A stretch of 64,000 nucleotides of DNA from Eubacteriales bacterium (GCA_045536535.1 JAZSNS010000019.1:18826-82825), one strand, 5' to 3'; positions 1,036-54,100 are shown, counted from the stretch's first letter. Notes: generated from the letters alone by a model not told the origin. Program-made: numbers and translations.

Positions 1036-1066
1036 TTATAGGTAATAAAGAAAAAGGAGTATGACC

Positions 1067-1795
1067 ATGAAAAGATTTTCCGCATTTTTACTCGCGTTGA
1101 TCATCGTTTGTCTTGCCGTACCCTTTGCAGGCGTTTCTGCCGCAGAGCAAAAACAACTTTGGGTAACTCATTACAACAGCAGCGCCGTTGAGGGCGCAGG
1201 TGTTATCATGACCGACCCTAACATCAAATTTGAATGGCGCATAAGCGTTGCTTTCTCTCCTGTTGCCGGCGAAGAAAATACTTACAGAGTCGCTAAAATC
1301 GTTGATTATCTTACCACGAACGAGGTCACCACAAAACTTCCCGTTCCGACCGGCGGCTTTGTTTATCAGGTAAATCGCGGCAATAACTATGCCGAGATAA
1401 ACGGCGGTATTGATTATACCAACGACGGTGTCGATTCCATGATCCTCGATATCAATACCTGGGCGGTCGGCGACGTTTTCGTGATCGAAGGTATCGACCT
1501 TCAAACTCAAACCGTTCCGACAAGCACTCCGAACGTGAACTGGTATGAAGATTCCTATGTTTGCACCGCAACCTACAAAGAATTTGTAGAGGGCGAAAAT
1601 GCCGATTCCGAGACCGTCGAAAGCGAAGAACCGACTGACGAGCCCGAAAGTTCGCTCGTTGATGAATCGGAAGACGAAGAAAAAGACAATGACGGTTCGG
1701 TCCTTACCATCGTTCTTTGGTCTGTCGCCGGTGTCGTTATCGTTGCAGTTATCGCGGCGATCGTTATAATTGTTTTGACCAAGAAAAAGAAATAA
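1067..1795 (+). CDS. Secreted, C-terminally membrane-anchored protein (signal peptide, unassigned beta-rich ectodomain, acidic linker, TM, KKKK tail)
   Basis: ORF 1061-1795. AAGGAG lies 7 nt before the second ATG (1067). Signal peptide MKRFSAFLLALIIVCLAVPFAGVSA, D/E-rich linker, TM VLTIVLWSVAGVVIVAVIAAIVIIVL followed by TKKKK. Confidence 0.7.
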   Translation: MKRFSAFLLALIIVCLAVPFAGVSAAEQKQLWVTHYNSSAVEGAGVIMTDPNIKFEWRISVAFSPVAGEENTYRVAKIVDYLTTNEVTTKLPVPTGGFVYQVNRGNNYAEINGGIDYTNDGVDSMILDINTWAVGDVFVIEGIDLQTQTVPTSTPNVNWYEDSYVCTATYKEFVEGENADSETVESEEPTDEPESSLVDESEDEEKDNDGSVLTIVLWSVAGVVIVAVIAAIVIIVLTKKKK

Positions 1796-1877: not shown

Positions 1878-1908
1878 AAAGAAAGAAACATCAATGGAGG
1901 TAGCTATT

Positions 1909-2502
1909 ATGGACTATATCATTCGCGCCGAAAAAGAGATCGACTTTACCCGTGCGGAAAAAGCGATGATCTCAAATTACAAATGGACCGAGGGCTATGC
2001 GCCCGAAGCGTTTGCGCAACTTATTTATGTTGAGGGCAGAGGCTTCGCGCTTCGCATGACGGCGGTCGAGTCGGATCCTAAAGCGGTTTACACCAAATTT
2101 GACGAACCTGTTTATAAAGACAGTTGCCTCGAATTTTTTGTGAATTTCAATAACGGCGATAAATATATGAACTTCGAGATGAACTCGAACGGCGCATTCC
2201 TTGCCGCAGTTCGTACCGACCGTTACAACAAAACTTCGATCAAGATGCTTGCTCCGCTTCCGAAGGTCAAACCTTTCAAAGAGGATGACCGCTGGGGCGT
2301 TGAAGTCTTTTTCTCGAACGATTTCATCGGCAAGACCTTCGGCAAATTCAGTTTTGCTCGCGGCGAAAGCTTCAAGGGCAACTTCTACAAATGCGGTGAC
2401 GAAACCGAAATTCCCCATTTCGGCATGTGGTCGCCCGTTGACAACGAAACTCCCGATTTCCACCGCCCCGAGTTCTTCGGAACGCTCACCATCGAGGCAT
2501 GA
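1909..2502 (+). CDS. Carbohydrate-binding family 9-like (CBM9/DOMON-like) protein, no signal peptide
   Basis: ORF 1894-2502. GGAGG lies 8 nt before the ATG at 1909. The motif pattern DSCLEFFVNF...YMNFEMNSNGA...W.VE..F recalls CBM9_2-type proteins. Assignment is from memory, not a search. Confidence 0.6.
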   Translation: MDYIIRAEKEIDFTRAEKAMISNYKWTEGYAPEAFAQLIYVEGRGFALRMTAVESDPKAVYTKFDEPVYKDSCLEFFVNFNNGDKYMNFEMNSNGAFLAAVRTDRYNKTSIKMLAPLPKVKPFKEDDRWGVEVFFSNDFIGKTFGKFSFARGESFKGNFYKCGDETEIPHFGMWSPVDNETPDFHRPEFFGTLTIEA

Positions 2503-2522: not shown

Positions 2523-3680
2523 ATGAACAAAATGAAAAAGACGTTAGCTTTCGTGCTTGCACTTTCGGTTCTTTTGGCCTGTTTTCCGTTCGTTGCTTCC
2601 GCCGGGGAAGATCTGCCGGTCATCAGTTGGTTCACCGTTGGAATGACGGTAAAGGATGCAAAATCAATTTCGCCTGCGTTGAAAGGTTTTACGCATAACG
2701 GCAAAACACTTTCGAATGACGATCTGCTTTCAACGGGCGATGTTGCAACCACCGACAACGGCGATTATCAGATCATCGTTTGCGGCGACGTTTGCGGCGA
2801 GGGGAAAGTCAGCGCAAGGGGTTATATCAACATCAAACGCTCGGTTCTCGGCACTCGTGAACTCAGCGAGGTTGAATTCCTTGCCGCAGACCTCAACAAA
2901 GACGGAAAGATAAGCTCGCTTGATTATATCCGCGCAAAGCGCTTGGTTTTGGGCACCTATAAAATGGAAAAACCCGAAAACGCGGAAAATGTGCCTGTTT
3001 TGCTTTATCACCACATTCTTCCCGATGCAGACAGAAACACTTCTCAATGGAGAGGCAACGAAATCACCATCGCGACGAGCGAATTCACCCGTCACATGCA
3101 GATGTTGACCGACGGCGAACATTACGTTGCAACGGTTGAAGAGGTCGTCCAATACGTTCGCGGCGAGATTCTTTTGCCCAAGGGCTCGATCTGCCTGACC
3201 TTTGACGACGGTTATAAGTCCAACACCTATTACGCCGCGCCGATTCTCAGAGACTTCGGTTTCAAGGCAACCGTTTTTGCGATCACAAGTTTTTATGATG
3301 ATGAATACCAGGCTGATTATGATGCGACTTCGCTTCAACATATGACCGAAAGGGACCTTGAATCTGCCGCAGACGTTATCGATCAGCAAAGCCACACCTG
3401 GTATAACCATAACCAGCTTTCGAGCCAAAGTTATAACGAAATCTATAATGATCTGATGCTCTCGCAGAGCGTTGACGAAAATCGGTTCTTTGCTTATCCT
3501 TACGGTATGTATAACTCGACCGTCATCAACGCCGTGCGCGACGCAGGGTTCGAGGCGGCATTCACGACCGAGCGGGACGGCGCAAGACCCGGTGATGCGA
3601 TCTATGAGATTCCGCGTTACACCATCACATCGCCGCTGTCGGACAGCGAATATCTCGCTTATCTTGCAAAAGCAAAATAA
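2523..3680 (+). CDS. Secreted polysaccharide deacetylase (NodB/CE4 domain) with an N-terminal dockerin-like module
   Basis: Signal peptide MNKMKKTLAFVLALSVLLACFPFVASA. Dockerin-like pair GDVCGEGKVSARGYINIKRSVLG and ADLNKDGKISSLDYIRAKRLVLG. NodB motifs LLYHHI and LTFDDGY. Confidence 0.8.
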   Translation: MNKMKKTLAFVLALSVLLACFPFVASAGEDLPVISWFTVGMTVKDAKSISPALKGFTHNGKTLSNDDLLSTGDVATTDNGDYQIIVCGDVCGEGKVSARGYINIKRSVLGTRELSEVEFLAADLNKDGKISSLDYIRAKRLVLGTYKMEKPENAENVPVLLYHHILPDADRNTSQWRGNEITIATSEFTRHMQMLTDGEHYVATVEEVVQYVRGEILLPKGSICLTFDDGYKSNTYYAAPILRDFGFKATVFAITSFYDDEYQADYDATSLQHMTERDLESAADVIDQQSHTWYNHNQLSSQSYNEIYNDLMLSQSVDENRFFAYPYGMYNSTVINAVRDAGFEAAFTTERDGARPGDAIYEIPRYTITSPLSDSEYLAYLAKAK

Positions 3681-18190: not shown

Positions 18191-19228
18191 ATGAAAAAAG
18201 CGTTATCTTTCATTCTTGCCGCAGTAATGCTCTGCGCGATGCTTGTCCTGCCTTCTTCGGCGGCGGACAACGTTAATTATCAAGAGGAATTTTGGTATGT
18301 CAAAACTGCTCCGAAGATCGACGGTGTCGTTAAAACGACGGAATACGGCCCCATTTTTCCCAATGATACCGAAAAGCCGATGGGAAGTATCCCCGCCCAC
18401 CTCGCTGACAAGACTCATCTCGTTATCGACAAAGTGAACAGCCCGATAACCGGAGAAGATTCGATGCTCATAACAGATATATCGGGAATCTACAATTATA
18501 ATCTGGATTGGGCATATTGTATGCTTTTGGAACCCATTTATTACGGATCGAGTGTTTATAGACTTATTGATATCTCGTATCCGACGGGCTACGTTCCCGC
18601 TTTCGATACGGAATTCGTTCAAGGTATGCTCATCGTTGCGGTCCATTCCGACGGACAGCAAGCAGGGGCGGATCGCGCAAATCTTGCAAAATCCATCCCG
18701 GTAGGCACCACGTTCGGGCTTTGGGAGATCGACCTCAACAACGACGATACAAATTATAAAAACTCCTCGATCTATGTTATCGACAGACCCGATATTGAAG
18801 GCGGTGTTGTTGATCCCGACGTATCAATGCCCGACACCGAAGACGTTTCGGACGACGTTTCGGACGACGTTTCGGACGATGTTTCGGACGACGGCTCGGT
18901 CGATATGAGCATCGTAATCCGTCCCGACACTTCGTTCGATAGCGACGCTGTAAAGGGCGAGACCGTTTTCGGTGAAGGCATCACTGAAAACGCAGAATCC
19001 ATTTCAGGCAAAACAGGCATTCCTGTCTTGGCCGTTATTGTGATCATCGTAATTTTGCTTCTCCTCTTCCTCGCAGTTCTGCCTTTGGTCATTGTTATCG
19101 TTATAATTATCGTCATCGTCAAAATCGTCAAGAAAAACAAAGCGAAGAAAGCGGCGGCGTTGGCGGCGGCAGAGGCTGAGGCTTATGAACCCGTTCAAGA
19201 AAACCCGACCGAAAGCGAAGGCGAATAA
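18191..19228 (+). CDS. Secreted, C-terminally membrane-anchored protein with a (DVSD)n acidic repeat
   Basis: Signal peptide MKKALSFILAAVMLCAMLVLPSSAA. The ectodomain is collinear with the 1067-1795 module. DVSD occurs 4 times, followed by a long TM and a KKNKAKK tail. Confidence 0.7.
   Translation: MKKALSFILAAVMLCAMLVLPSSAADNVNYQEEFWYVKTAPKIDGVVKTTEYGPIFPNDTEKPMGSIPAHLADKTHLVIDKVNSPITGEDSMLITDISGIYNYNLDWAYCMLLEPIYYGSSVYRLIDISYPTGYVPAFDTEFVQGMLIVAVHSDGQQAGADRANLAKSIPVGTTFGLWEIDLNNDDTNYKNSSIYVIDRPDIEGGVVDPDVSMPDTEDVSDDVSDDVSDDVSDDGSVDMSIVIRPDTSFDSDAVKGETVFGEGITENAESISGKTGIPVLAVIVIIVILLLLFLAVLPLVIVIVIIIVIVKIVKKNKAKKAAALAAAEAEAYEPVQENPTESEGE
18842..18901 (+). repeat. In-frame 12-nt tandem repeat (GACGTTTCGGAC, 4 copies plus one degenerate copy)
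   Basis: gacgtttcggac gacgtttcggac gacgtttcggac gatgtttcggac gacggctcggtc, encoding DVSD repeats. Confidence 0.9.
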
Positions 19229-19287: not shown

Positions 19288-20859
19288 ATGAAAAAGTTTT
19301 TATCTGTTCTGATCGTATCCTTGATGATATTTGCGCTTGTGCCTTTCGCGGCGTCCGCCGAGAGCGTTGACGTTATTGTTGCGGTCGCCGACGGCGGAAG
19401 CGTTGAGGCAAACGGCGTTGAGATTTACGGCGGCGAATCGGTTGTTTCGGTCACGAACGGAACGCTTAACTGTGTTTCGACTTCTTATGATACATCCAAG
19501 GTCGTCAGAGCGTTTGTTAACGGCGAGGAAATCCCGGCACCGAACGGAGAGTTCTCTGTCAACAACGTCACATCAGCAACGAGAGTTTATGTTGCGTTTG
19601 CCTATCTTTATGTCGACGATATGGGCATTGAAATCGATGATGTCGATTGGACCGCCGAGAATATCGTTATTCCCGTGAGTTCTTCCGAGCCTGTGGTCGA
19701 CGAGGTTTTTCATAAAATCGCTGCGATTCCCGAAGGGAAGTTTGTCGAATTCAAAAGCGCGCTCGGCAGCATTTTCATACCTACCGGCAGGCTCATGTAC
19801 TTCGTCGAAACTTCTTATATGAACGTCGGCGATATTGTCGGCGGAAACCGTTATGAGAACATCAGATCGGCGATGCAGCTTCGCGGTGAAGAAAACACGA
19901 ATTTTGCGGCTTTCGGTTTTCTTGCGTCCTGCGTTTTCCCGAGCGGAACCGAGGTTTCTTTCAACCTTGGTGAAAAATACGCAAATTCGACAACTCAGGT
20001 CTTTGATTACGACGACGATTTGAAATATGTTTATTCAAAAGCCGAGGTCGGCGTTTCGGAAACCGGCGTAACGGAAAGAATCGTTTATGATAACGAATCG
20101 GTTCTTGTGTGTGCCCTTAACGAGGCGATCAGATACAGTATCTATATTTCGGCCAACGGAGAGGGCGGAAGCGTTTCTCCCGAAGGCGTTCAGAGCGTCA
20201 TTTATAAAGACTCTCTTGAAGTTAACGCCAAGGCGGACGAAGGGTTTGTTATAAAGAGAATCCTTGTTGACGGCGCGGAAATCGAGATCGAAAAAAATCT
20301 TACCGATTACACCCATTCGTTTTCGGAAGTCGAAGCTAATCATACCTTTTCGGTCGAATTTAAAGAGAAAGAAGCAGAACCTGTGACGATCATCGTCAAC
20401 GTTGACGATGATATCGACGTTGATCCGACGGATGAGTCGAAAACCGAATTAAGACCGATCGCGATATTTTTGATCATTGTCGGTGTTCTTCTCTTGCTCT
20501 TTGGGTTGCTGATTATAATAATCGTTATCATCATCGTTGCGATGCGCAAAAAGAAGAAAAAACGCGAACGTCTTGCGGCAGAAAACGTTGCGGCGGCAAA
20601 TGTTGCGCCGGCGGCAGGCGCCGCGGAAGAAAACGCGGAAAATTCAAATCCGGAGATCGTTGAAGGTTCTGTTGCCGATGATGCCGTTTGCGCGGCCGCG
20701 GCAAAAGACGCGTCCGAATGCGCTGATGAATCCGACGGCGCAAACGACGAAGCGCCTGCCGTTGCGGCAGACGTGTCCGAATTTAAATTCTGCTCGAACT
20801 GCGGAACAAAACTCGAACCCAACAGCGAGATTTGCCATAACTGCGGAAACAAGCAATAA
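19288..20859 (+). CDS. Bitopic surface protein: signal peptide, repeated beta-modules, TM, and a cytoplasmic tail ending in a zinc ribbon
   Basis: Signal peptide MKKFLSVLIVSLMIFALVPFAASA. Two ..GGSV....F modules sit near the ends of the ectodomain. TM IAIFLIIVGVLLLLFGLLIIIIVIIIV is followed by KKKKKR. C-terminus FCSNCGTKLEPNSEICHNCGNKQ. Confidence 0.72.
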   Translation: MKKFLSVLIVSLMIFALVPFAASAESVDVIVAVADGGSVEANGVEIYGGESVVSVTNGTLNCVSTSYDTSKVVRAFVNGEEIPAPNGEFSVNNVTSATRVYVAFAYLYVDDMGIEIDDVDWTAENIVIPVSSSEPVVDEVFHKIAAIPEGKFVEFKSALGSIFIPTGRLMYFVETSYMNVGDIVGGNRYENIRSAMQLRGEENTNFAAFGFLASCVFPSGTEVSFNLGEKYANSTTQVFDYDDDLKYVYSKAEVGVSETGVTERIVYDNESVLVCALNEAIRYSIYISANGEGGSVSPEGVQSVIYKDSLEVNAKADEGFVIKRILVDGAEIEIEKNLTDYTHSFSEVEANHTFSVEFKEKEAEPVTIIVNVDDDIDVDPTDESKTELRPIAIFLIIVGVLLLLFGLLIIIIVIIIVAMRKKKKKRERLAAENVAAANVAPAAGAAEENAENSNPEIVEGSVADDAVCAAAAKDASECADESDGANDEAPAVAADVSEFKFCSNCGTKLEPNSEICHNCGNKQ

Positions 20860-20881: not shown

Positions 20882-21934
20882 ATGAAAAAGATAACTGCTG
20901 TAATTATAACCGTTGTTGCCGTTCTTGCGCTTGCCCTTCTTCCGACGTTGGCAAGCGTCGAGAGCGATATGAAGAATGCGGTCGGGAGCGAAAATTCGGC
21001 CGCCGAGTTTAAATTGAATATCAATGCGCCCGATACGTACAAAGCGGGGGAAACCGTCAACGTTTCGGTTACGGTCGACAGCATCACCCATCAAGGCGGA
21101 CTGACCTCGGTCGAATTCGAGTTCGTTTATGACAAGGACAAACTTGTTCTTAAAAACGAAGCCGACAGCGAAAACGCGCTCGACTGCATCAAAAAACAGC
21201 CGAACGACGATTGGGAAAATCTCACGAGCGCCGACAGAACAAACGGCGTGATAAACTGCTCGTTGCTCACGATGGGTTTTGAAGAAAGTGCTGCGAAAAA
21301 CAACGGCGACGTTACATTTTCCTTTGATTTTGAGGTGAAATCCGATTCGGTCGGAGATATCGGTTTTTACATAGAACACAAAACCGTTTACGGCAGTTTG
21401 AACGTTGATCGGACCATTGAAGATTTCGTCGGCAACGGCGGTTATGCCGTTATGACTGAATTTGTAAATCAGGAAAGTTCCGAAACGGAATCTTCAAACA
21501 CCGAAAATTCAAAAGAGGACACCTCTTCGGGCGTTTCGAGCGAAGGCTCTGAGAATTCAAACGCGAGCAACACTTCTTCATCCGCCCCCGAAAGCTCCTT
21601 GAACTCCGACCCTGAAAGTTCTTTGAGTTCCGAACCCGAAACGTCGGTCGGAACCTCTCAAAATTCCCAACAAAGCCATGACTCTCGCCCCGAATTCCCC
21701 TGGAACGGAAACACCGACGATTCAAAACCCTTCTCGCCGAGCGCTTGGTCATCCGACGAAAGCGATGCGGTTGAAGAAAAGAACGGGCTTCCCGATTTCG
21801 TCATTCCGGTCATGATCATTGGTGCGATAGTTCTCGTTATCGTCATAGCGGTCATCGTTATTTTTGCGCTTGAAAAGAAAAAGGAGCGCGATGCGCTCGA
21901 CGAAATAAAAGACGAGATCGAAAACGAAAGATAA
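20882..21934 (+). CDS. Membrane-anchored protein with a cohesin-like domain and a Ser-rich linker
   Basis: True start MKKITAVIITVVAVLALALL at 20882; listed ORF 20537-21934 is a 5' over-extension running through the upstream gene. Cohesin-like pattern KAGETVNVSVTVDSITHQGGLTSVEFEFVYDKDKLVL...GDVTFSFDFEVKS, then an S/E-rich linker and a C-terminal TM. Confidence 0.65.
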   Translation: MKKITAVIITVVAVLALALLPTLASVESDMKNAVGSENSAAEFKLNINAPDTYKAGETVNVSVTVDSITHQGGLTSVEFEFVYDKDKLVLKNEADSENALDCIKKQPNDDWENLTSADRTNGVINCSLLTMGFEESAAKNNGDVTFSFDFEVKSDSVGDIGFYIEHKTVYGSLNVDRTIEDFVGNGGYAVMTEFVNQESSETESSNTENSKEDTSSGVSSEGSENSNASNTSSSAPESSLNSDPESSLSSEPETSVGTSQNSQQSHDSRPEFPWNGNTDDSKPFSPSAWSSDESDAVEEKNGLPDFVIPVMIIGAIVLVIVIAVIVIFALEKKKERDALDEIKDEIENER

Positions 21935-22241: not shown

Positions 22242-22733
22242 GTGAAGAAATTTATCATTCCGCTTGTCATCGTTGCGCTTTGTCTTGCGTTGATTCCCGT
22301 TGCGGCGATGAACACGTTTGCGGAGGGTGGTTCTGACGAGGTTTCTATCCCCGACAACACGCTTATTGATTACGGTTATCTTAAAACCTTTAAAGAACAG
22401 CTCAGGCAGGAACTCATCGAAGAACTTACTGCTTCGGGCGGAATTACCGTCAACACCACTTATGAAGACGTTTCCTTGAAGGAAGGTCAATTCATAATAC
22501 TTTCGCCCGACAGCGAAGTCATCTATCGCGGCGGCGGCGCGGTCGTTATTTCCTCGTCGAACGCCGAGAACGAAGGCATTACCGATATGTCAAAAGGCAC
22601 CGAACTTTTTTCGGGTGAGTCTTTGGAATACGGACATATCTATTACGCATCGGCGACCGAATCAAAAAAAGCAGTGCTCGTCACAGGCAGCAAGGCATAT
22701 TTTACGGTAAGGGGAAGTTATGAGATCGTTTAA
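22242..22733 (+). CDS. Secreted hypothetical protein
   Basis: GTG start preceded by AAGGAGAG. Signal peptide KKFIIPLVIVALCLALIPVAAMNTFA. Overlaps the next gene by 14 nt. Confidence 0.6.
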   Translation: MKKFIIPLVIVALCLALIPVAAMNTFAEGGSDEVSIPDNTLIDYGYLKTFKEQLRQELIEELTASGGITVNTTYEDVSLKEGQFIILSPDSEVIYRGGGAVVISSSNAENEGITDMSKGTELFSGESLEYGHIYYASATESKKAVLVTGSKAYFTVRGSYEIV

Positions 22734-24348
22734 GCCCTGCCGTTTCATCGGTTTCGCGCTGGCATTCGTATTCTGCTTCGGCGCGGCGGTAACGCCTTTC
22801 GGCACAACCACTTTTGCAAAATCGGACAGTTACAAAGAACCTAACGTTCAGGTCGGAATGTATGTTTCGACTCCTTTGCTTGACACAAAACGTTTTTCCT
22901 CGAAGAACGTTTCGTCGAGCGGTTTTGAGATCGGATATGTTTCCGGTGAAAGTTTCAAACTTCTTCATTCGCTCGATAACAAATCAATAATTTTGATTCC
23001 GCAGGTCAATGCGAATTTCAACGGCGGCAACGTTAAGGCTGACTCCAACGGCGATATCGGCGCATACAGCGCGGTCATGGGCAGTTATCAAAGCGCGTCG
23101 AGTGCATTTTCCGCCGCAAAAAGTTCGGGCGGATTCGTCGCTTTCGTAAAGGGCGGTTATGAGGTCCGCAAATTCGCTTCGGTCACTGCCGAAAAGGCGA
23201 AAAAGGCTTCAAACGGCAGAGAGATCGCTTCGCCCGTTTCGGGTGGCTTGACGGTTCTCGATGCCGAAAACGGCAAGATACTCTTCACCTTTGAGGATTC
23301 TTCGCACAAACTTGCGATCCGCGCAAAGAACGGCGGAACGGTCAATCTCCCCATGAAACACCGTTCGGGAAGCGAAAACAGTTACGATTATCGCGGTATT
23401 TTTGTTTATTCGGTTTCGGGCGGATTGCTCCAAATGGTCAATATTCTCGGTTTGGAGGAATATACCCGTTGCGTAATGGCGAACGAAATCGGCACGAACT
23501 TCTCGGTCGAGACCCGCAAGGCTTTTGCGGTTCTCGCGCGCACGGTCCCGCTTAACAGCAAACATTCAAAACTCGGGTTTGACGTTTGTTGCAACTCTGC
23601 TTGTTGCCAGGTCTATTACGGAACCTACCGCATGAGCGAGGCAAACAACAAGATCGTCGATGCAACTCGCGGACTTGTCTGTACCTATCAGGGTGCACCT
23701 ATTACCGTTCTTTATCATAACTCAAACGGCGGCGCAAGTTGTTCGTCGGTTGCGGCTTGGGGCGGTGTTGAAGTTCCTTATCTTACCACCGTTTTCCAAG
23801 AGGAATTTGAAGACGGCGACAAATGGGAACGCGTTTACACAAAGCAAGAATTTTTTGAATATATCCGCTCGCGCAACGCTTTTTCTTCGTTGAGCGACGA
23901 TGAAATTTCGATGAAGATTCTCGGCAAAGATCCTTACGGCTCGGATTATATCACCGTTCTCTCGGTCAGTGACGGAAAAGGCAACACAGTCACCGTTGAA
24001 ACCAGCGAAGATATCCGCGCGGCGTGCGGATTCACCAGCGCGAATTTCGAGATTGAATACAGCGTTGAAATTCCTGTTCTGTCCTCGGACGGAAAGGTCG
24101 AGACCCGACCGATCAGCGGCGTTCTCACCGCCGAAGGTTACAAACCGTTTGAAGGCTTCGGCGACGGCGTGAAAACCGCCCAAGGCGTTGAATACAAAGC
24201 AGAAAAGATCGCGATCAAAGGCTCGGGCGTCGGTCACGGCGTTGGATTCTCGGCAACGGGAAGCGAAAAACTTTCGCAAGACGGATATAGTTATAAATAT
24301 ATCCTCACTTTCTTCTTCAACGGCACAAAACTTGAATATGCAAAATAA
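22720..24348 (+). CDS. SpoIID/LytB domain-containing secreted protein
   Basis: LEEYTRCVMANEIG...ETRKAFAVLARTV...CCNSACCQVYYG...YHNSNGG motifs typical of the SpoIID/LytB amidase-enhancer domain. An N-terminal signal is present. Confidence 0.8.
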   Translation: MRSFKPCRFIGFALAFVFCFGAAVTPFGTTTFAKSDSYKEPNVQVGMYVSTPLLDTKRFSSKNVSSSGFEIGYVSGESFKLLHSLDNKSIILIPQVNANFNGGNVKADSNGDIGAYSAVMGSYQSASSAFSAAKSSGGFVAFVKGGYEVRKFASVTAEKAKKASNGREIASPVSGGLTVLDAENGKILFTFEDSSHKLAIRAKNGGTVNLPMKHRSGSENSYDYRGIFVYSVSGGLLQMVNILGLEEYTRCVMANEIGTNFSVETRKAFAVLARTVPLNSKHSKLGFDVCCNSACCQVYYGTYRMSEANNKIVDATRGLVCTYQGAPITVLYHNSNGGASCSSVAAWGGVEVPYLTTVFQEEFEDGDKWERVYTKQEFFEYIRSRNAFSSLSDDEISMKILGKDPYGSDYITVLSVSDGKGNTVTVETSEDIRAACGFTSANFEIEYSVEIPVLSSDGKVETRPISGVLTAEGYKPFEGFGDGVKTAQGVEYKAEKIAIKGSGVGHGVGFSATGSEKLSQDGYSYKYILTFFFNGTKLEYAK

Positions 24349-34991: not shown

Positions 34992-37250
34992 ATGAAATTT
35001 ACAAAAAGATTTCTCGCGTTTGTTCTCGCGGCGTTGATGCTCGTTTCTGTTTGCGTCGTGGTCGTTTCCGCTGAATCTTACGTTCTCGGTGACGTTACAC
35101 GCGACGGAAAAATCAACGCAAGAGACTACATTAAGGTAAAACGTCATTGCCTTAAAACCACGACTCTTACCGATGAAGAGTTTAACCTTGCTGACATTAA
35201 CCGCGACGGCAGGGTAAATGCTCAGGACTACATCAAAATCAAGCGTCATTGTCTCGGCACAGCCATCATTGAAAACACTTTGTTCTCAATGACTCCTCAG
35301 GGCGATGTCGTTGAAATCGACGATAACGTTTATTATCAGTATTACACCGTTCAGAGCGGCGAAGCAAATCGCACCGAAACCGTTGTTTCGATGGAATTTG
35401 ACCCTGCTGACGGTTATATCCCGATGGTATTCTCGGGTCAGGCATGTAATTATTGGGATTACGATTCGGGCATCCTCTCTACGCAATATGATATCGCTAC
35501 CCAGAAATACGGTTATGACGTAGTAGGTGTTATCAACGGCTCGTTCTTCTCGATGGACACCGCTTATGGTCAATACGGTCTTCTTAACGGAAATATCATT
35601 TCCAACGGCAAGGTCGTTTCCGCACATGCAGGCCACTATGATACAGTTGTTGCTTTCGATTCGGACGGCAGCATGAATTTTGTCAACAGCCAGCTTGAAT
35701 TCAAACTGTTCCTCGGCGGCAAGGAAGTGCCCAACGGTATTTATTACATCAACAAGCACTCCGGCCATTTGAACGGAGCTAACTGGAGCAACAGATTCTA
35801 TTATTTCGATACCTCTTGCGGCAGCAACGCCACGACCTATGCTGTATGCCCGGGTTACGAAGTGGTTTGCGAAAAGGTAAACAACTCCGAACTTGCTGTC
35901 GGCGATATGCTTTACGGCAGAATTATCGAAATCAAAGAAAATTCCTACGGCACTGCTCTTTCGGACGGCGAATACGATATGTCCGATAAGTTCGTTCTCT
36001 TCGTAGCTGACGATTCGCCTTATGCAAGTTATGTCGAAGACCTTGTTTTAGGTGACATCGTTAACATTCAGGTTAACGAAACCGTTGCGGCTTCCAAAGA
36101 AATCATGGAAAACGCAAACAGCGTTATCCCCAACGTCGGCTTCCTCGTTAAGGACGGCGTTGACCAGACTCAGATCAAATCCACGATCGGCACTCACGAC
36201 GTTACTCTCGCTGCTCGTTGGACTGCATTCGGTCAGAAGGCAGACGGCTCTTACGTATTCTTCACCTCCGAAGGCGGCTCTACCGGCGAAACCAGCAGAT
36301 CGATCACCCTCCGCGACGTTGCGAAGTTCATGATCGAAAAGGGCTGCGTTAACGTTATCCGTATGGACGGCGGCGGATCGAGCGCAATGTACGTTAAAGA
36401 CACCGGCGACGGCGAACCCGGTTATCTCCAAAGCAGCACTCGCGACGTTGGCGACTGTATCCTCGTTGTCAAGGCCGACAGCACCAAGAGCGAAGACCTT
36501 GAAAACATTCTTTCTGCCAGAATAGCCGAAGCAAAAGCTATCGTTGCAAGCGAACCCAACGCAACTATTTCTGCCGCAATCGCAGAAGCAGAAGCGATTC
36601 TCGCGCTTGACAACCCCGTTTCGGGCGATGTTCGCCGCGAAATCTGCGACCTTGATGATGCTATGTCCGGCAGAGACAGAATCGCTGATCTTATCGAGCA
36701 GGCAAACGGCGTTAAATTCACCGAATTCAGCGTTACAAACCTCGATGCTCTCCGCAATGCTTATGCGGACGCGGTTGCGGCTCTTAACGCTCCCGACGTT
36801 ACATATGGAGAATCGAAATATATCTGCGATACTCTCGAAGCGCTTCTTGAAACCAAAGGCGAAGGCGAACTTGTTGAAAACGGCATTTTCATCACCGGCT
36901 TCAACAGCTCCATTCTCGCAGGCGATGCCACCATTTTCACTCCCGATTTCGGCGAGATCTCTCACTCTACCGCAAACCACAAATGGACGCAGAACATGAT
37001 TCTCACCTGGGATGATTTGATGGGCGGTTATGTCGTTACCGAAATGTTCCATGGCAACGGCGATGCAAAGACGGTCAACCTCGAAGAAAATCAGTTGTTC
37101 ATCGCGCTTCACCGGGACAGCTCTGTTCCCGACAGCATTCCCAATATGGACGCATTCAGTCAGGCAACCGTAGGCCAGAGACTTATTATCAACGGCATCG
37201 ACATTGAAAATAAGACGATCGGCTTCCTCGCTTATATTAAATTTGTATAA
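34992..37250 (+). CDS. Secreted dockerin-bearing phosphodiester glycosidase (NAGPA/DUF2233-like) with a C-terminal unassigned module
   Basis: Start MKFTKRFLAFVLAALMLVSV at 34992 with GGAG upstream. Dockerin pair GDVTRDGKINARDYIKVKRHCL and ADINRDGRVNAQDYIKIKRHCLG. NAGPA-like GVINGSFF...RWTAFGQKADGSYVFFT...IRMDGGGSSAMYV. Confidence 0.75.
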   Translation: MKFTKRFLAFVLAALMLVSVCVVVVSAESYVLGDVTRDGKINARDYIKVKRHCLKTTTLTDEEFNLADINRDGRVNAQDYIKIKRHCLGTAIIENTLFSMTPQGDVVEIDDNVYYQYYTVQSGEANRTETVVSMEFDPADGYIPMVFSGQACNYWDYDSGILSTQYDIATQKYGYDVVGVINGSFFSMDTAYGQYGLLNGNIISNGKVVSAHAGHYDTVVAFDSDGSMNFVNSQLEFKLFLGGKEVPNGIYYINKHSGHLNGANWSNRFYYFDTSCGSNATTYAVCPGYEVVCEKVNNSELAVGDMLYGRIIEIKENSYGTALSDGEYDMSDKFVLFVADDSPYASYVEDLVLGDIVNIQVNETVAASKEIMENANSVIPNVGFLVKDGVDQTQIKSTIGTHDVTLAARWTAFGQKADGSYVFFTSEGGSTGETSRSITLRDVAKFMIEKGCVNVIRMDGGGSSAMYVKDTGDGEPGYLQSSTRDVGDCILVVKADSTKSEDLENILSARIAEAKAIVASEPNATISAAIAEAEAILALDNPVSGDVRREICDLDDAMSGRDRIADLIEQANGVKFTEFSVTNLDALRNAYADAVAALNAPDVTYGESKYICDTLEALLETKGEGELVENGIFITGFNSSILAGDATIFTPDFGEISHSTANHKWTQNMILTWDDLMGGYVVTEMFHGNGDAKTVNLEENQLFIALHRDSSVPDSIPNMDAFSQATVGQRLIINGIDIENKTIGFLAYIKFV

Positions 37251-39899: not shown

Positions 39900-39975
39900 G
39901 GGGCATTAGCGCAGCTGGGAGCGCACAACACTGGCAGTGTTGGGGTCAGGGGTTCGAATCCCCTATGCTCCACCA
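39900..39975 (+). tRNA. tRNA-Ala (anticodon GGC), CCA encoded
   Basis: Cloverleaf folds by hand. Acceptor GGGGCAT/ATGCTCC includes the G3:U70 alanine identity pair. Anticodon loop CTGGCAG, T-loop TTCGAAT, 3' ACCA. Confidence 0.92.
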
Positions 39976-41104: not shown

Positions 41105-41178
41105 GCAGGCGTAGTTTAGTGGCAGAACTTCAGCTTCCCAAGCTGACTGTGCGGGTTCGATTCCCGTCGCTTGCTCCA
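41105..41178 (+). tRNA. tRNA-Gly (anticodon CCC), CCA encoded
   Basis: Acceptor GCAGGCG/CGCTTGC, anticodon stem TCAGC/GCTGA with loop TTCCCAA, T-loop TTCGATT, discriminator T plus CCA. Confidence 0.9.
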
Positions 41179-44877: not shown

Positions 44878-45531
44878 TTATATAATACCGTTCATCGAAA
44901 GTATGAACAGAACACATGTGGCGATTATCGCGCCGGCGAGGATAAAAAGACCGATCGGGAACTTCTTTTTTGTGCCGGAAGAAGAATTATCAACAAGATT
45001 TGCTTTCCGTAAAGCCGTGACAACAGGACGGTAAAGCAAAAAGGTGAAACCTGCGTTAAGTCCGGCTTTCAAAAGGTTGAACGGTAAAAATGCGGGCAGC
45101 AGAAGTTCGACGACCGCCTCGCGCGGGTAACCCATATAAAGCGGCGTGATGAGGTAATTCCAAAGCATCATCACCGCGACCATAAGAACGCTTCCGACAG
45201 CCAAACCGATGACCGCGCCCCAAAGGGTGCGCTTCTTTTTATAGATAAAAGCGGCTGTGCAGGCGAACGAGCAGGACGACAAAACATTCATCACCAATCC
45301 GATGAACCCCGTTTCGCTCGCAAACGCCATTTCGATCAGCGAAACGATCAACGAAACCGAAAACGATATCCAAGGACCCCAAATGAAACCGCCGAGAGCG
45401 ATGATGATGTCCTTCGGGTCATATTTCAAAAACAGCGTCACGGGGATCCTGCCGACCAACATGACGATATACGCCAAGGCGCAGAGCATGGCGGTTATTG
45501 AAATTATTTTTATTCTGTTTTTGTTTTTCAT
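44878..45531 (-). CDS. ribU: ECF transporter S component, riboflavin-specific (RibU-type)
   Basis: Start MKNKNRIKIISITAMLCALAYIV at 45531 with an AAGGTG RBS. Six TM segments. Directly preceded by an FMN riboswitch. Confidence 0.82.
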   Translation of the reverse strand: MKNKNRIKIISITAMLCALAYIVMLVGRIPVTLFLKYDPKDIIIALGGFIWGPWISFSVSLIVSLIEMAFASETGFIGLVMNVLSSCSFACTAAFIYKKKRTLWGAVIGLAVGSVLMVAVMMLWNYLITPLYMGYPREAVVELLLPAFLPFNLLKAGLNAGFTFLLYRPVVTALRKANLVDNSSSGTKKKFPIGLFILAGAIIATCVLFILSMNGII

Positions 45532-45546
45532 AAAGCTCACCTTAAT

Positions 45547-45730
45547 AAAAAATCCCCGAAAGCATAAAACTTTCGGGGGAATTTGCAAAATGACGCAAAA
45601 CTTAAAAACGCGAAATCTCTGCTTCTTTTATCCAGACTTTACTGTTGGTTTCGGAATCGCACCGAATCATGCAAAAACGCTCGCGGACTTTACCGCCAAT
45701 CGGGAATCACACCCTGCCCCGAAGCAATAT
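45547..45730 (-). promoter_or_regulatory. FMN riboswitch (RFN element) with a terminator expression platform
   Basis: Minus strand reads GCTTCGGGGCAGGGTGTGATTCCCGATTGGCGGTAAAGTCCGCGAGC...GATTCGGTGCGATTCCGAAACCAACAGTAAAGTCTGGATAAAAGAAGC, then TCCCCGAAAG-loop-CTTTCGGGGA plus TTTTTT. This matches the conserved RFN core. Confidence 0.88.
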
Positions 45731-51176: not shown

Positions 51177-54100
51177 TTGCCTTTTTGTGTCGAGATGAAC
51201 AGACCGATCGAACCGAAAGCGATCAGCGACAAGATCACGGCGACGATTGCCGTTATCGCTCTGTCGTCTTTGATGTCGGGCGAACTGTATTCGGGGATCA
51301 AAGAAACGTTTATCTTGTAGATCATGGTTTCGCCGTCAGGCGTCACGACGGTGATCTCAATAACTTTCGGCACGCCGTAAAGTTTTGTATCCCCGATTAT
51401 GACTTCCGCTGTCGGGTTCTGAGCCGAGCAGAAAATGTTGATTTTTGAGGTCCTGCGCGGAACCGAAATGCTGTATTCCGTGATATCGGGAGAGAACGCG
51501 GGATTGAGTTTGAAGCCTTCGATTTCAAGCGATGAGAGCCGGCAGTTCGTGTCAAACACAGGCTCTTTTCTGCGTGAGACCTTGATGGTGTAGAAAGATG
51601 AACTTCCGTCTTCATCGTTGCGCCGAACAATGACAGTTGAAGCTCCCGAATCCGGAACGACAAGCCCCGAAACCGAAACGGTTTGGTTTTCTTCGTGAGA
51701 AACTTTGACATCTGCGAGCGCGCTGTCGTAAGGGATCGTGACTTCATATTCATACTTTTCGGGGTCGAATTTGAAGGAATCGGCGTTAAGGATATCGATC
51801 CCGAACTCTCCGTGAGTTTGTCGATTCACTTTGAACTTTTTGTTTTCAAATTTGACAACACGTGCGCCGTCGGGGAACGAAACGGTGATTCCGTCGGAGG
51901 AAACCGCGAGGGTTTCGGTTGCGTTTTCGGCAACCCTGAACCGAAGCGTTATCAGCGTTTTGAATGCCTTTCCGCAGGATTCGCCGTTTTCACCGTAAGC
52001 ATAGAAACAGATTTCGTTTTCGTTGTCGCGGAATCCGACTTCCCAACCCGTGCTCTCGCCTTCGATGAATTCAAGCCCTTTCGGATATCGAACCGCTCCG
52101 CTTGCGCCGAGGGCATATTTACAGCCGCCGAGGCAGATAACGACATCGATCGTATCTCCGCGTTCGATATAAGAAACCGTTTGTGCGGTTGTGTTGCCGA
52201 AAAGGTTTTTGCTCGGTGTTCCGAGCGGTGTTTGATCGCGGCGGAGGAGAACATTCCTCAGCGCGCGGTAATCGTTATCGGCGACAACGCCGTTTTTGTT
52301 CATGTCTGCCGAAGCATAAAATTCGGCGGGATAATCATATCCGCGAAGAATACGTTCGTGAACGTAAAGGTCATAAGCCGAGATGCAACCGTCGCCGTCG
52401 GTATCGCCGGTGACAACGGCGATCAGTTCGTCGGAGGGAAGACCGTCTTTATAAAGAATGATCTTATAACCGGTCGCGATAAACCCGTTTGCGTTCTTGC
52501 CGTTGGGAAGAACGATATCGACCGATTTGCCGCCTTTGAACATCTTTTCAACGGCCGAAACGTCAGTTCCTGCGGCGAACCCGAGAGCCAAGCCTCGGTC
52601 GCGATCGACGGTGATACCGCTGTCGTCGGGGAAGGTCAAAAGGTCGTCGCGAACCGTGATGACCGCTTTTGCGGTGAATCTGCCGTAATCGGTGTTGACG
52701 GTTGCGGTGACTGTGTATTTACCTACGGCGAGCGCTGTGACCTCGCCGTTTTCGTTGATTTTGATCCCTTTCGAGTCGCATTTGAAACTGACGGGCAGCG
52801 ACGATGCGCCTTCGGGCAGGTATCTGACTCTGAGAGATACCGTCTCGCCGACAGACATGATTCTGTCAGCGACAAGGAACTCGATTTTTGAGATTTTGGA
52901 TTCGACTTTGAATTTCAAAGAAACGCTGTTGCCGCAAGGGAGCGAGATCATGAAGATATGTTCGCCCGCAAGGGTCACCGAACTTCCCGAATCGAAAGGT
53001 TTGCCGTCAAGATAACCGATACCTCGACTGTATGATATCGGTGCGCTGCCGAGATAAACCCCGCCGTCTTCAACACCCGTGATTTCGGGAACAAGGGTGA
53101 TTTCGCTTCCGTCACCGTATGAACATATCGAGATAATGCCGTTTCCGATCGTGATCGCCGAGTTGTCGGGTGCGATCGTTGCGATTTCTGCGAAAACACC
53201 GACGTTACCGATATAACGGTTGAGATCAAGCCCGAAAACTCCGTTTTTGGTTATAACTGTGTTCCCGCGAAAAGCAAGAACTTCGGTGCCAAGCGTGATT
53301 TTTTCGCTGAGTTGGTCACCGAGGAAAACCTCTTTTCCGACAGCAACGCCGTTGCCGATATAAAGGCTTTCTCCGTTTGCCGTTATTCTGCGAACACGGC
53401 TGAGCGATTTGTTGTAAACCGAAAGAGCGTTTCCGTCAAGGACGTAAATATATTCATTGTCTGCGGCCGCCGAATCCGCGCTGATGCTCGTTGCCGAAAC
53501 CGCTCCGCCGCCGACGGGGCAATAGGCAAGTCTGCCGTTTGAAACGGCATAAAGACGACCGTCAAACGCGAACGCGGAGTCGCAATTCGATGCAAATTCG
53601 ATATAATCGCCGTTTTCCGCATCATCAACAGGCGCGAGATAAACGAAAGGCGAGTTTTCAAAAGCGACCGCAACTCGGTCTTCCGAAACCGAGATGCTTT
53701 TCGGCGCAAATTTCAAAGGAACGGGCAGGTTTTCTTCGAGAGAGCTGTTGTTGAAACTGTAAATCGAATTTTTGTTGCCGAAAATCAAAAACGTCGTTTC
53801 CGATGAAGCGGCGACCGAAATCGGTTCTGAATAAACGTCATAAAAAAGATGATCGCGGTAAGCGTTGATGGTTTCGGATTTTGAAACGGCTCGGTCGAGC
53901 CTTTCCGCCGCACCGTAGGCGGCGATGCCTTCGGCACCGTTTTTGATTATTGCGAACGTCTTTTCAAATCCGAAAAGATATACCGCATCGTTCCCGACAA
54001 CCATATCCGACACCGAGAAAGGAAAACTGCCGAGTTCTGTGCCCGATGAGATATCAATAAGCCCGCTTTCGGTGAAAAGAATGCCGTCCTCGATCATTAA

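Follow-up and report, generated by a model that had tools for sequence, protein, structure and literature searches.

A predicted membrane-anchored cohesin protein and three dockerin-bearing, non-cellulolytic enzymes in a 64-kb stretch of a Eubacteriales genome

Single-cohesin anchors and the gene at 20882-21934

Monovalent scaffoldins held by a transmembrane helix, and cohesin-dockerin systems without a cellulolytic role, are already published from gut Clostridia, in surveys of 2024 and 2026. One cohesin with a C-terminal transmembrane helix makes up scaffoldins of H. luporum, C. cibarium, and the presumably non-cellulolytic Lachnoclostridium sp. MSJ-17 (PMC11557425), and others of Ruminococcus difficilis, R. 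sp. HUN007, JE7B6, zg921, and zg924, in a study stressing that many ruminococcal cohesins are missed by sequence methods (bioRxiv 10.64898/2026.02.05.704116). The Sca2 protein of R. bromii is a single-cohesin anchor that binds the dockerins of peptidases as well as those of amylases, and in the genome of that species membrane proteins and peptidases bear dockerins (PMC4611034). Dockerins are also borne by many peptidases and esterases of R. flavefaciens FD-1 (PMC2930009), and non-cellulosomal cohesin and dockerin modules have been reported by Peer et al. 2009, as cited in that same article. Here we analyse a gene on the plus strand, at 20882-21934, of a 64,000-nucleotide stretch of a Eubacteriales bacterium genome (GCA_045536535.1, JAZSNS010000019.1:18826-82825), together with three dockerin-bearing enzymes encoded in the same stretch. 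We call the whole stretch the window and count all positions from its first letter.

We read the product of this gene as a monovalent anchoring scaffoldin that sits directly in the membrane and whose cohesin would hold dockerin-tagged secreted proteins at the cell surface, and we give this reading a probability of roughly two in three. The proposed mechanism has four steps. The signal peptide would be cleaved, and the C-terminal helix would keep the protein in the cytoplasmic membrane, as a type I membrane protein. The stalk, about 100 residues long, Ser/Glu-rich and predicted to be disordered, would extend the cohesin through and beyond the wall. There, the cohesin would capture the Ca2+-dependent dockerins of secreted proteins, which would thereby be retained on the cell surface.

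Going by their descriptions, the transmembrane scaffoldins cited above share with this protein the single cohesin, the attachment by a helix and not by S-layer homology (SLH) domains or sortase, and a cohesin that is hard for profiles to recognise. Their hosts have many dockerin proteins, most of which are not cellulases, and we count this as a further likeness. They differ in the host, which here is an uncultured Clostridia lineage outside those surveys, and in the module itself, which here carries about 30 additional residues and a helix at its N-terminus. Sca2 of R. bromii and ScaE of R. flavefaciens and R. champanellensis also tie dockerin proteins to the cell by a single cohesin, as predicted here, but in their case sortase, acting on an LPXTG-type signal, makes a covalent link to peptidoglycan, whereas the 20882-21934 product has a 27-residue helix and a 20-residue charged tail instead. 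With OlpA, OlpB, and SdbA of Acetivibrio thermocellus the likeness lies in the cohesin fold (the OlpA cohesin, 3ul4, holds rank 4 in our Foldseek search) and in partners whose dockerins are Ca-dependent and have two F-hand repeats. Those proteins attach by SLH domains and carry glycoside hydrolases (GHs), whereas the window encodes neither an SLH domain nor a dockerin-bearing GH. The cohesins of the C. perfringens toxin complexes (2jh2, 2vo8, 2ozn; entries of this species hold Foldseek ranks 2 and 5-7) resemble ours in being used outside plant-fibre degradation. They lie within large GHs and are paired with FIVAR-dockerins, whereas the cohesin studied here belongs to a stand-alone membrane protein.

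Layout and cohesin module of the gene product

The open reading frame (ORF) translates into 350 residues and holds both strings that an earlier note, made from the sequence alone, had quoted as a cohesin pattern (AGETVNVSVTVDSITHQGGLTSVEFEFVYDKDKLVL and NNGDVTFSFDFEVKS). By Kyte-Doolittle hydropathy the product has two hydrophobic segments only, residues 1-29 and 301-335, and it consists, in this order, of a signal peptide, a 175-residue cohesin, a 104-residue stalk, one transmembrane helix, and a short charged tail (Table 1). Residues M1, K2, L20, P21, and A24 of the signal peptide are invariant across five orthologs. The stalk (residues 200-303) is 31% Ser, 13% Glu, and 10% Asn, and the equivalent linkers of the orthologs are acidic, Ser- or Pro-rich. 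The Ser-rich stalk followed by a transmembrane segment, described in the earlier note, is thus found again, the segment being one C-terminal helix at residues 304-330. The layout is also the one expected of the single-cohesin anchoring scaffoldin proposed there, with a secretion signal, a cohesin, and surface attachment, the last by a transmembrane helix and not by SLH domains or LPXTG. Sortase anchoring was considered and rejected: the residues before the helix (...EEKNGLPDFVIPV...) contain no LPXTG motif, and the tail is 20 residues long and of mixed charge.

The module at residues 25-199 is a cohesin as judged by sequence profile and by predicted fold. Scanned alone, it matches PF00963 with 33.1 bits (E 7.5e-8; gathering cut-off 24.1 bits), and residues 1-199 score 32.6 bits. 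The same model is silent on the full-length protein and on residues 25-303, even at E<=10, and the full-length orthologs P0004, P0008, P0013, and P0014 likewise have no PF00963 match. We infer that this silence in the presence of the stalk is due to the composition filters of HMMER acting on the low-complexity stalk. Gene look-up tables show "-" for Pfam on the orthologs; the cohesin match being silenced by the stalk, annotation pipelines leave the whole ortholog group unannotated, as "hypothetical protein". The PF00963 scan suggested in the earlier note as a check therefore recovers the cohesin on the isolated domain, and on the full-length protein it returns no match and would falsely dismiss it.

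An exhaustive homology search with residues 25-199 as the query identified 164 relatives at E<1e-3, counted as cluster representatives, of which 91 lie below 1e-10 and 10 below 1e-30. We aligned 45 cohesin domains from these relatives (alignment A1), 39 of which match PF00963 when scanned one by one. A word-indexed homology search returned nothing with the cohesin domain and 2 proteins only with the 45-sequence profile. A search of the PDB sequences with the single protein gave no match. With the A1 profile, the top PDB matches are cohesins only, namely ScaB (4ums, 1.9e-5), ScaC of R. flavefaciens (5lxv, 3.9e-5), and cohesins of C. acetobutylicum, A. cellulolyticus, and C. perfringens. The AlphaFold2 model obtained with A1 has a predicted local distance difference test (pLDDT) score of 97.6 and a predicted TM-score (pTM) of 0.92, and shows an all-beta domain after one N-terminal helix. 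In a Foldseek search of this model against the PDB, ranks 1-27 are all cohesins, with probability 1.00 and a TM-score of up to 0.77 on the target, and the top match is again ScaC of R. flavefaciens (5lxv_C, E 8e-8). The N-terminal helix and the approximately 30 residues beyond the classic 140-residue cohesins are specific to this cohesin family. The cohesin read from the sequence in the earlier note thus stands, and the structure prediction proposed there as a second check points the same way.

Dockerins of the window and candidate partners of the cohesin

Dockerins occur in exactly three proteins of the window, according to a six-frame regex scan and to a family dockerin hidden Markov model (HMM) run on all ORFs of at least 40 residues. 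These are the polysaccharide deacetylase, the NAGPA-type phosphodiester glycosidase, and the S8 subtilase already named as dockerin-bearing in the earlier note. The family cohesin HMM has the 20882-21934 product as its sole match across the ORFs of the window. The dockerin model PF00404 has a cut-off of 22.9 bits, and two F-hand repeats are expected, with Asp/Asn Ca ligands at positions 1, 3, 5, 9, and 12. Against it, the NAGPA dockerin scores 51.4 bits (full protein), the deacetylase dockerin 31.9 bits in the full protein and 36.2 bits as the module alone, and the S8 dockerin 21.1 bits in the full protein, under the cut-off, and 28.1 bits as the module alone. The deacetylase and NAGPA dockerins have K17-R18 in both repeats and, save for repeat 1 of the deacetylase, D12-Y13 as well. 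Both repeats of the NAGPA dockerin are near-canonical, repeat 1 having T at position 3. The S8 dockerin has E-R and R-N at positions 17-18 and A at position 9 of repeat 2.

The cargo domains are a CE4 deacetylase (Polysacc_deac_1), NAGPA, and Peptidase_S8, so the observation that none is a GH of cellulosome type is upheld. Among the window proteins scanned, we found no dockerin protein with a GH or a carbohydrate-binding module joined to a GH, as a cellulosome or an amylosome would have. The closest NCBIfam models for the deacetylase are those of PgaB and IcaB, which are poly-GlcNAc deacetylases, with scores far under their cut-offs. This closeness hints at exopolysaccharide or wall as the substrate.

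The architectures of the relatives connect this cohesin family to dockerins. We examined the 150 listed of the 164 relatives, and all architecture counts refer to these. A transmembrane helix followed by basic residues ends 63 of them, as it does the 20882-21934 product. At least 25 have a paired-F-hand dockerin at the C-terminus, often behind two or three cohesins, which is the classic scaffoldin pattern. Two full copies of the cohesin are present in 28, and P0002 has three. Judged by these layouts, the relatives are either cohesin-transmembrane proteins or multi-cohesin-dockerin scaffoldins. The family dockerin HMM was built solely from the dockerins fused to relatives of the 20882-21934 cohesin, and it scores the NAGPA dockerin at 82.5 bits, that of the deacetylase at 65.8 bits, and that of S8 at 24.6 bits. 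The high scores of the first two place them in the type of dockerin that accompanies this cohesin family. Of the three dockerins likened to one another in the earlier note, only those of the deacetylase and NAGPA match this type; that of S8 has other residues at positions 17-18 and reads as a divergent outlier. The most likely partners of the cohesin would be proteins with the D-Y-x-x-x-K-R...G-T dockerin type, which in the window are the CE4 deacetylase and the NAGPA glycosidase. Dockerin-bearing adaptor scaffoldins encoded elsewhere in the genome could be partners too.

The S8 subtilase carries an N-terminal signal or anchor of its own as well as a transmembrane helix at its C-terminus, and so needs no cohesin to stay on the cell. 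Because of this membrane anchor and of its divergent dockerin, it is a less likely partner. Its residues 1449-1589, directly after the internal dockerin, read like a cohesin. This segment has no Pfam match at E<=1 and no cohesin among its PDB sequence matches; compared with the cohesin family, it reaches an hhalign probability of 5-7% and is negative in phmmer. No homologues of the C-terminal region of S8 were found in the metagenome contigs scanned. A low-confidence AlphaFold2 model made from the single sequence (pLDDT 53.5) has nine strands, and its best Foldseek match is the archaeal cohesin 2xdh at E 3.5e-3, with none below 1e-3. Many cohesins follow at E 0.02-0.1, interspersed with YcnI, integrin, and pilin domains. 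The resemblance is suggestive, and the segment is at most a putative second cohesin.

What the analysis shows is the cohesin and its fold, the elements of its topology, the dockerins and their types, the layouts of the relatives, and the preserved gene order; the binding of cohesin to dockerin, the specificity for partners, the function of the stalk, and the biological role are inferred. Several points weigh against the scaffoldin reading. The cohesin and dockerin genes are dispersed among housekeeping genes (at about 2.5, 21, 35, and 51-56 kb), with no operon link, and the real partner could be encoded outside the visible 64 kb, with the dockerins of the window binding other cohesins. The full-length protein fails in Pfam, as described above. 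Repeat 1 of the deacetylase dockerin has a degenerate set of Ca ligands (D, C, E, S, G), two being lost, with C at position 3 and G at 12; the YIxIKR helix is kept, and the degenerate state recurs in an ortholog that is 56% identical (L001).

The same cohesin might instead be the base of a hierarchy, binding the dockerins of multi-cohesin adaptor scaffoldins (like P0002, P0005, P0007, and P0012) on which the enzymes would dock, in the manner of ScaE and ScaB of Ruminococcus flavefaciens. We regard this as rather unlikely. It would fit the many relatives with the order (X)-Coh2-3-Doc, X being a module described below, and with the same KR-type dockerins, and it has precedents in R. bromii and R. 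flavefaciens. However, no multi-cohesin protein emerges from the scan of the window with the family cohesin HMM, and the dockerins of adaptors and enzymes share one sequence type. Sequence therefore cannot separate the two specificities, and both readings could be true.

Neighbourhood, X module, and biological meaning

Table 1. Positions, strands, and supporting evidence of the features discussed, in their order along the window.
Feature	Position	Strand	Evidence
Signal peptide, X module, acidic linker, and transmembrane helix; upstream of the CBM9-like gene and the dockerin-deacetylase	1061..1795	+	X profile 68 bits, E 1.8e-20
CBM9_2-like protein, apparently without signal peptide; immediately upstream of the dockerin-deacetylase	1894..2502	+	E 5.8e-33
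Secreted CE4 polysaccharide deacetylase with internal dockerin (about 2784-2945)	2523..3680	+	Polysacc_deac_1 7e-18
Signal peptide, N-terminal region, X module, acidic linker, and transmembrane helix; two genes upstream of the cohesin gene	18191..19228	+	X profile 34 bits, E 4e-10
Single-pass membrane protein with extracellular N-terminal part and cytoplasmic C-terminal zinc ribbon; ends 22 nt before the cohesin start	19288..20859	+	Zn_Ribbon_1 25.8 bits
Sec-type signal peptide, residues 1-24 (MKK...PTLA/SV, cleavage at the slash)	20882..20953	+	Hydrophobic segment 1-29
Cohesin module, residues 25-199	20954..21478	+	PF00963, profile vs PDB, AlphaFold2, Foldseek
Ser/Glu/Asn-rich low-complexity stalk, residues 200-303	21479..21790	+	Composition
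Single C-terminal transmembrane helix, residues 304-330	21791..21871	+	KD19 peak 3.6
Charged cytoplasmic tail EKKKERDALDEIKDEIENER plus stop codon	21872..21934	+	Direct reading
Intrinsic terminator-like hairpin directly past the stop codon	21949..21980	+	13-bp stem, 7 GC pairs, T-run
163-aa secreted protein	22242-22733	+	
SpoIID/LytB-domain gene	22720-24348	+	
NAGPA-type phosphodiester glycosidase, secreted; dockerin N-terminal (about 35085-35249), X module C-terminal	34992..37250	+	NAGPA 3e-22
X module at the C-terminus of the dockerin-NAGPA protein	about 36870-37247	+	X profile 42 bits, E 7e-13
tRNA-Ala(GGC)	39900-39975		
tRNA-Gly(CCC)	41105-41178		
Flavin mononucleotide (FMN) riboswitch, upstream of minus-strand ORF 44878-45588	45616-45730	-	104 bits
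1797-aa S8 subtilase: N-terminal signal/anchor, Big_2, internal divergent dockerin (52244-52408), unproven cohesin-like segment (51800-52222), Cadherin-like domains, C-terminal transmembrane helix	51173..56566	-	Peptidase_S8 4e-45

The window is ordinary chromosome, with genes for pyridoxal phosphate enzymes, TsaD, nth, a PP-loop ATPase, proB/proA, and TrkAH; two tRNA genes and a riboswitch are also present (Table 1). A dedicated gene cluster was rejected, as housekeeping genes separate the four cohesin and dockerin genes. The hairpin after the cohesin gene would end the transcription unit. Because of this hairpin and of the short distance to the upstream gene, the cohesin gene is probably the last of a unit with the zinc-ribbon protein gene, and perhaps also with the gene at 18191-19228.

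Orthologs of the cohesin protein, with 39-51% identity, hold the same position in other assemblies of related uncultured Clostridia. The conserved order is nth, PP-loop ATPase, (zinc-ribbon protein), cohesin-transmembrane protein, 163-aa protein, and SpoIID-domain protein. One of these assemblies (L002) has nth, the PP-loop gene, the cohesin gene, a 161-aa protein (69% identical), and the SpoIID-domain gene, and lacks the zinc-ribbon ortholog. In another (L004), an ortholog of the zinc-ribbon membrane protein (31% identity, E 8e-37) stands directly before the cohesin gene, followed by a 161-aa protein and the next gene. The gene of the 163-aa protein overlaps the start of the SpoIID/LytB-domain gene, and the two always come after the cohesin gene in the orthologous loci. 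The named relatives are metagenome-assembled genomes (MAGs) labelled "Clostridia bacterium", and their MBO, MBQ, and MBR accession series we take to be those of ruminant gut MAG projects. No relatives were found in the species-representative genome collection, and none for the cohesin orthologs in the metagenome contigs scanned.

This conserved order bears on a second alternative, in which the cohesin fold serves another role, e.g., in an envelope- or sporulation-associated membrane protein near the SpoIID/LytB-domain gene, and the dockerin genes are unrelated to it. Three genomes keep the 163-aa protein and the SpoIID-domain gene in synteny with the cohesin gene, the 20882-21934 product has a weak NCBIfam "choice-of-anchor V" match (E 6e-4), and non-cellulosomal cohesin-like modules are known (2xdh, the C. 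perfringens entries). We nonetheless consider it very unlikely: fusions to dockerins recur in this domain family, as do tandem arrays, which is hard to explain otherwise, a strong terminator lies between the cohesin gene and the SpoIID unit, and the synteny may merely mirror the common ancestry of close genomes. That the frame is open by chance or is what remains of a decayed gene, with a coincidental cohesin pattern, as the empty full-length Pfam scan and word-indexed search might suggest, has a negligible probability and is already refuted by the 164 significant relatives (10 below 1e-30), the orthologs at 39-51% identity with their conserved signal peptide and layout, the pLDDT of 97.6, the conserved genomic position, and the terminator past the stop codon.

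We also identified an uncharacterised module of about 130 residues, here called X, that lies N-terminal to cohesins in the relatives, with 40 copies in 33 of the 150. Its profile was built from the regions N-terminal to the cohesins, starting from residues 26-185 of P0016 and run for three rounds (alignment A3). The commonest layout of the relatives that bear it is signal peptide, X, cohesin, and transmembrane helix, and some are X-Coh(n)-Doc. The motifs VNxxIxGED, NPNWA, IVxxxHS, and GDxxTxxGxDL are conserved, and for X we found neither a Pfam family nor a sequence relative in the PDB. The window encodes three copies (Table 1). X and the cohesin form one polypeptide in relatives and are in neighbouring genes in the window, and the fusions link the two functionally. 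X is a candidate new part of cohesin-dockerin systems. The pair of genes for the CBM9-like protein and the dockerin-deacetylase, downstream of one of the X genes, is kept in L001, and the relative GCA_045593165.1 (TsaD 90% identical) retains it.

These elements can be assembled into a wider picture, which is speculative and which we hold to be doubtful. In it, an uncultured lineage of gut or rumen Clostridia would use a cohesin-dockerin surface system to remodel its own envelope or exopolysaccharide, and not dietary polysaccharide, by means of the PgaB/IcaB-like deacetylase, the phosphodiester glycosidase, and the giant subtilase. The previously undescribed X module would be at the core of the system, as a targeting or binding element interchangeably joined to the cohesin anchor, to enzymes with dockerins, or to a transmembrane helix of its own. 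The earlier note regarded the display system as devoted to the processing of wall or glycan and of protein, which is an extrapolation from three genes within 64 kb of the genome.

Overall, the current picture of cohesin-dockerin biology is unchanged by these findings. They expose an annotation pitfall, in which the isolated domain clears the cut-off of the Pfam cohesin model and the match is silenced once the Ser-rich stalk is attached. They also add a well-supported case of cohesin-dockerin display, with predicted binding, outside fibre degradation and in an uncultured Clostridia lineage, where the cargo suggests the processing of envelope or exopolysaccharide and of proteins.

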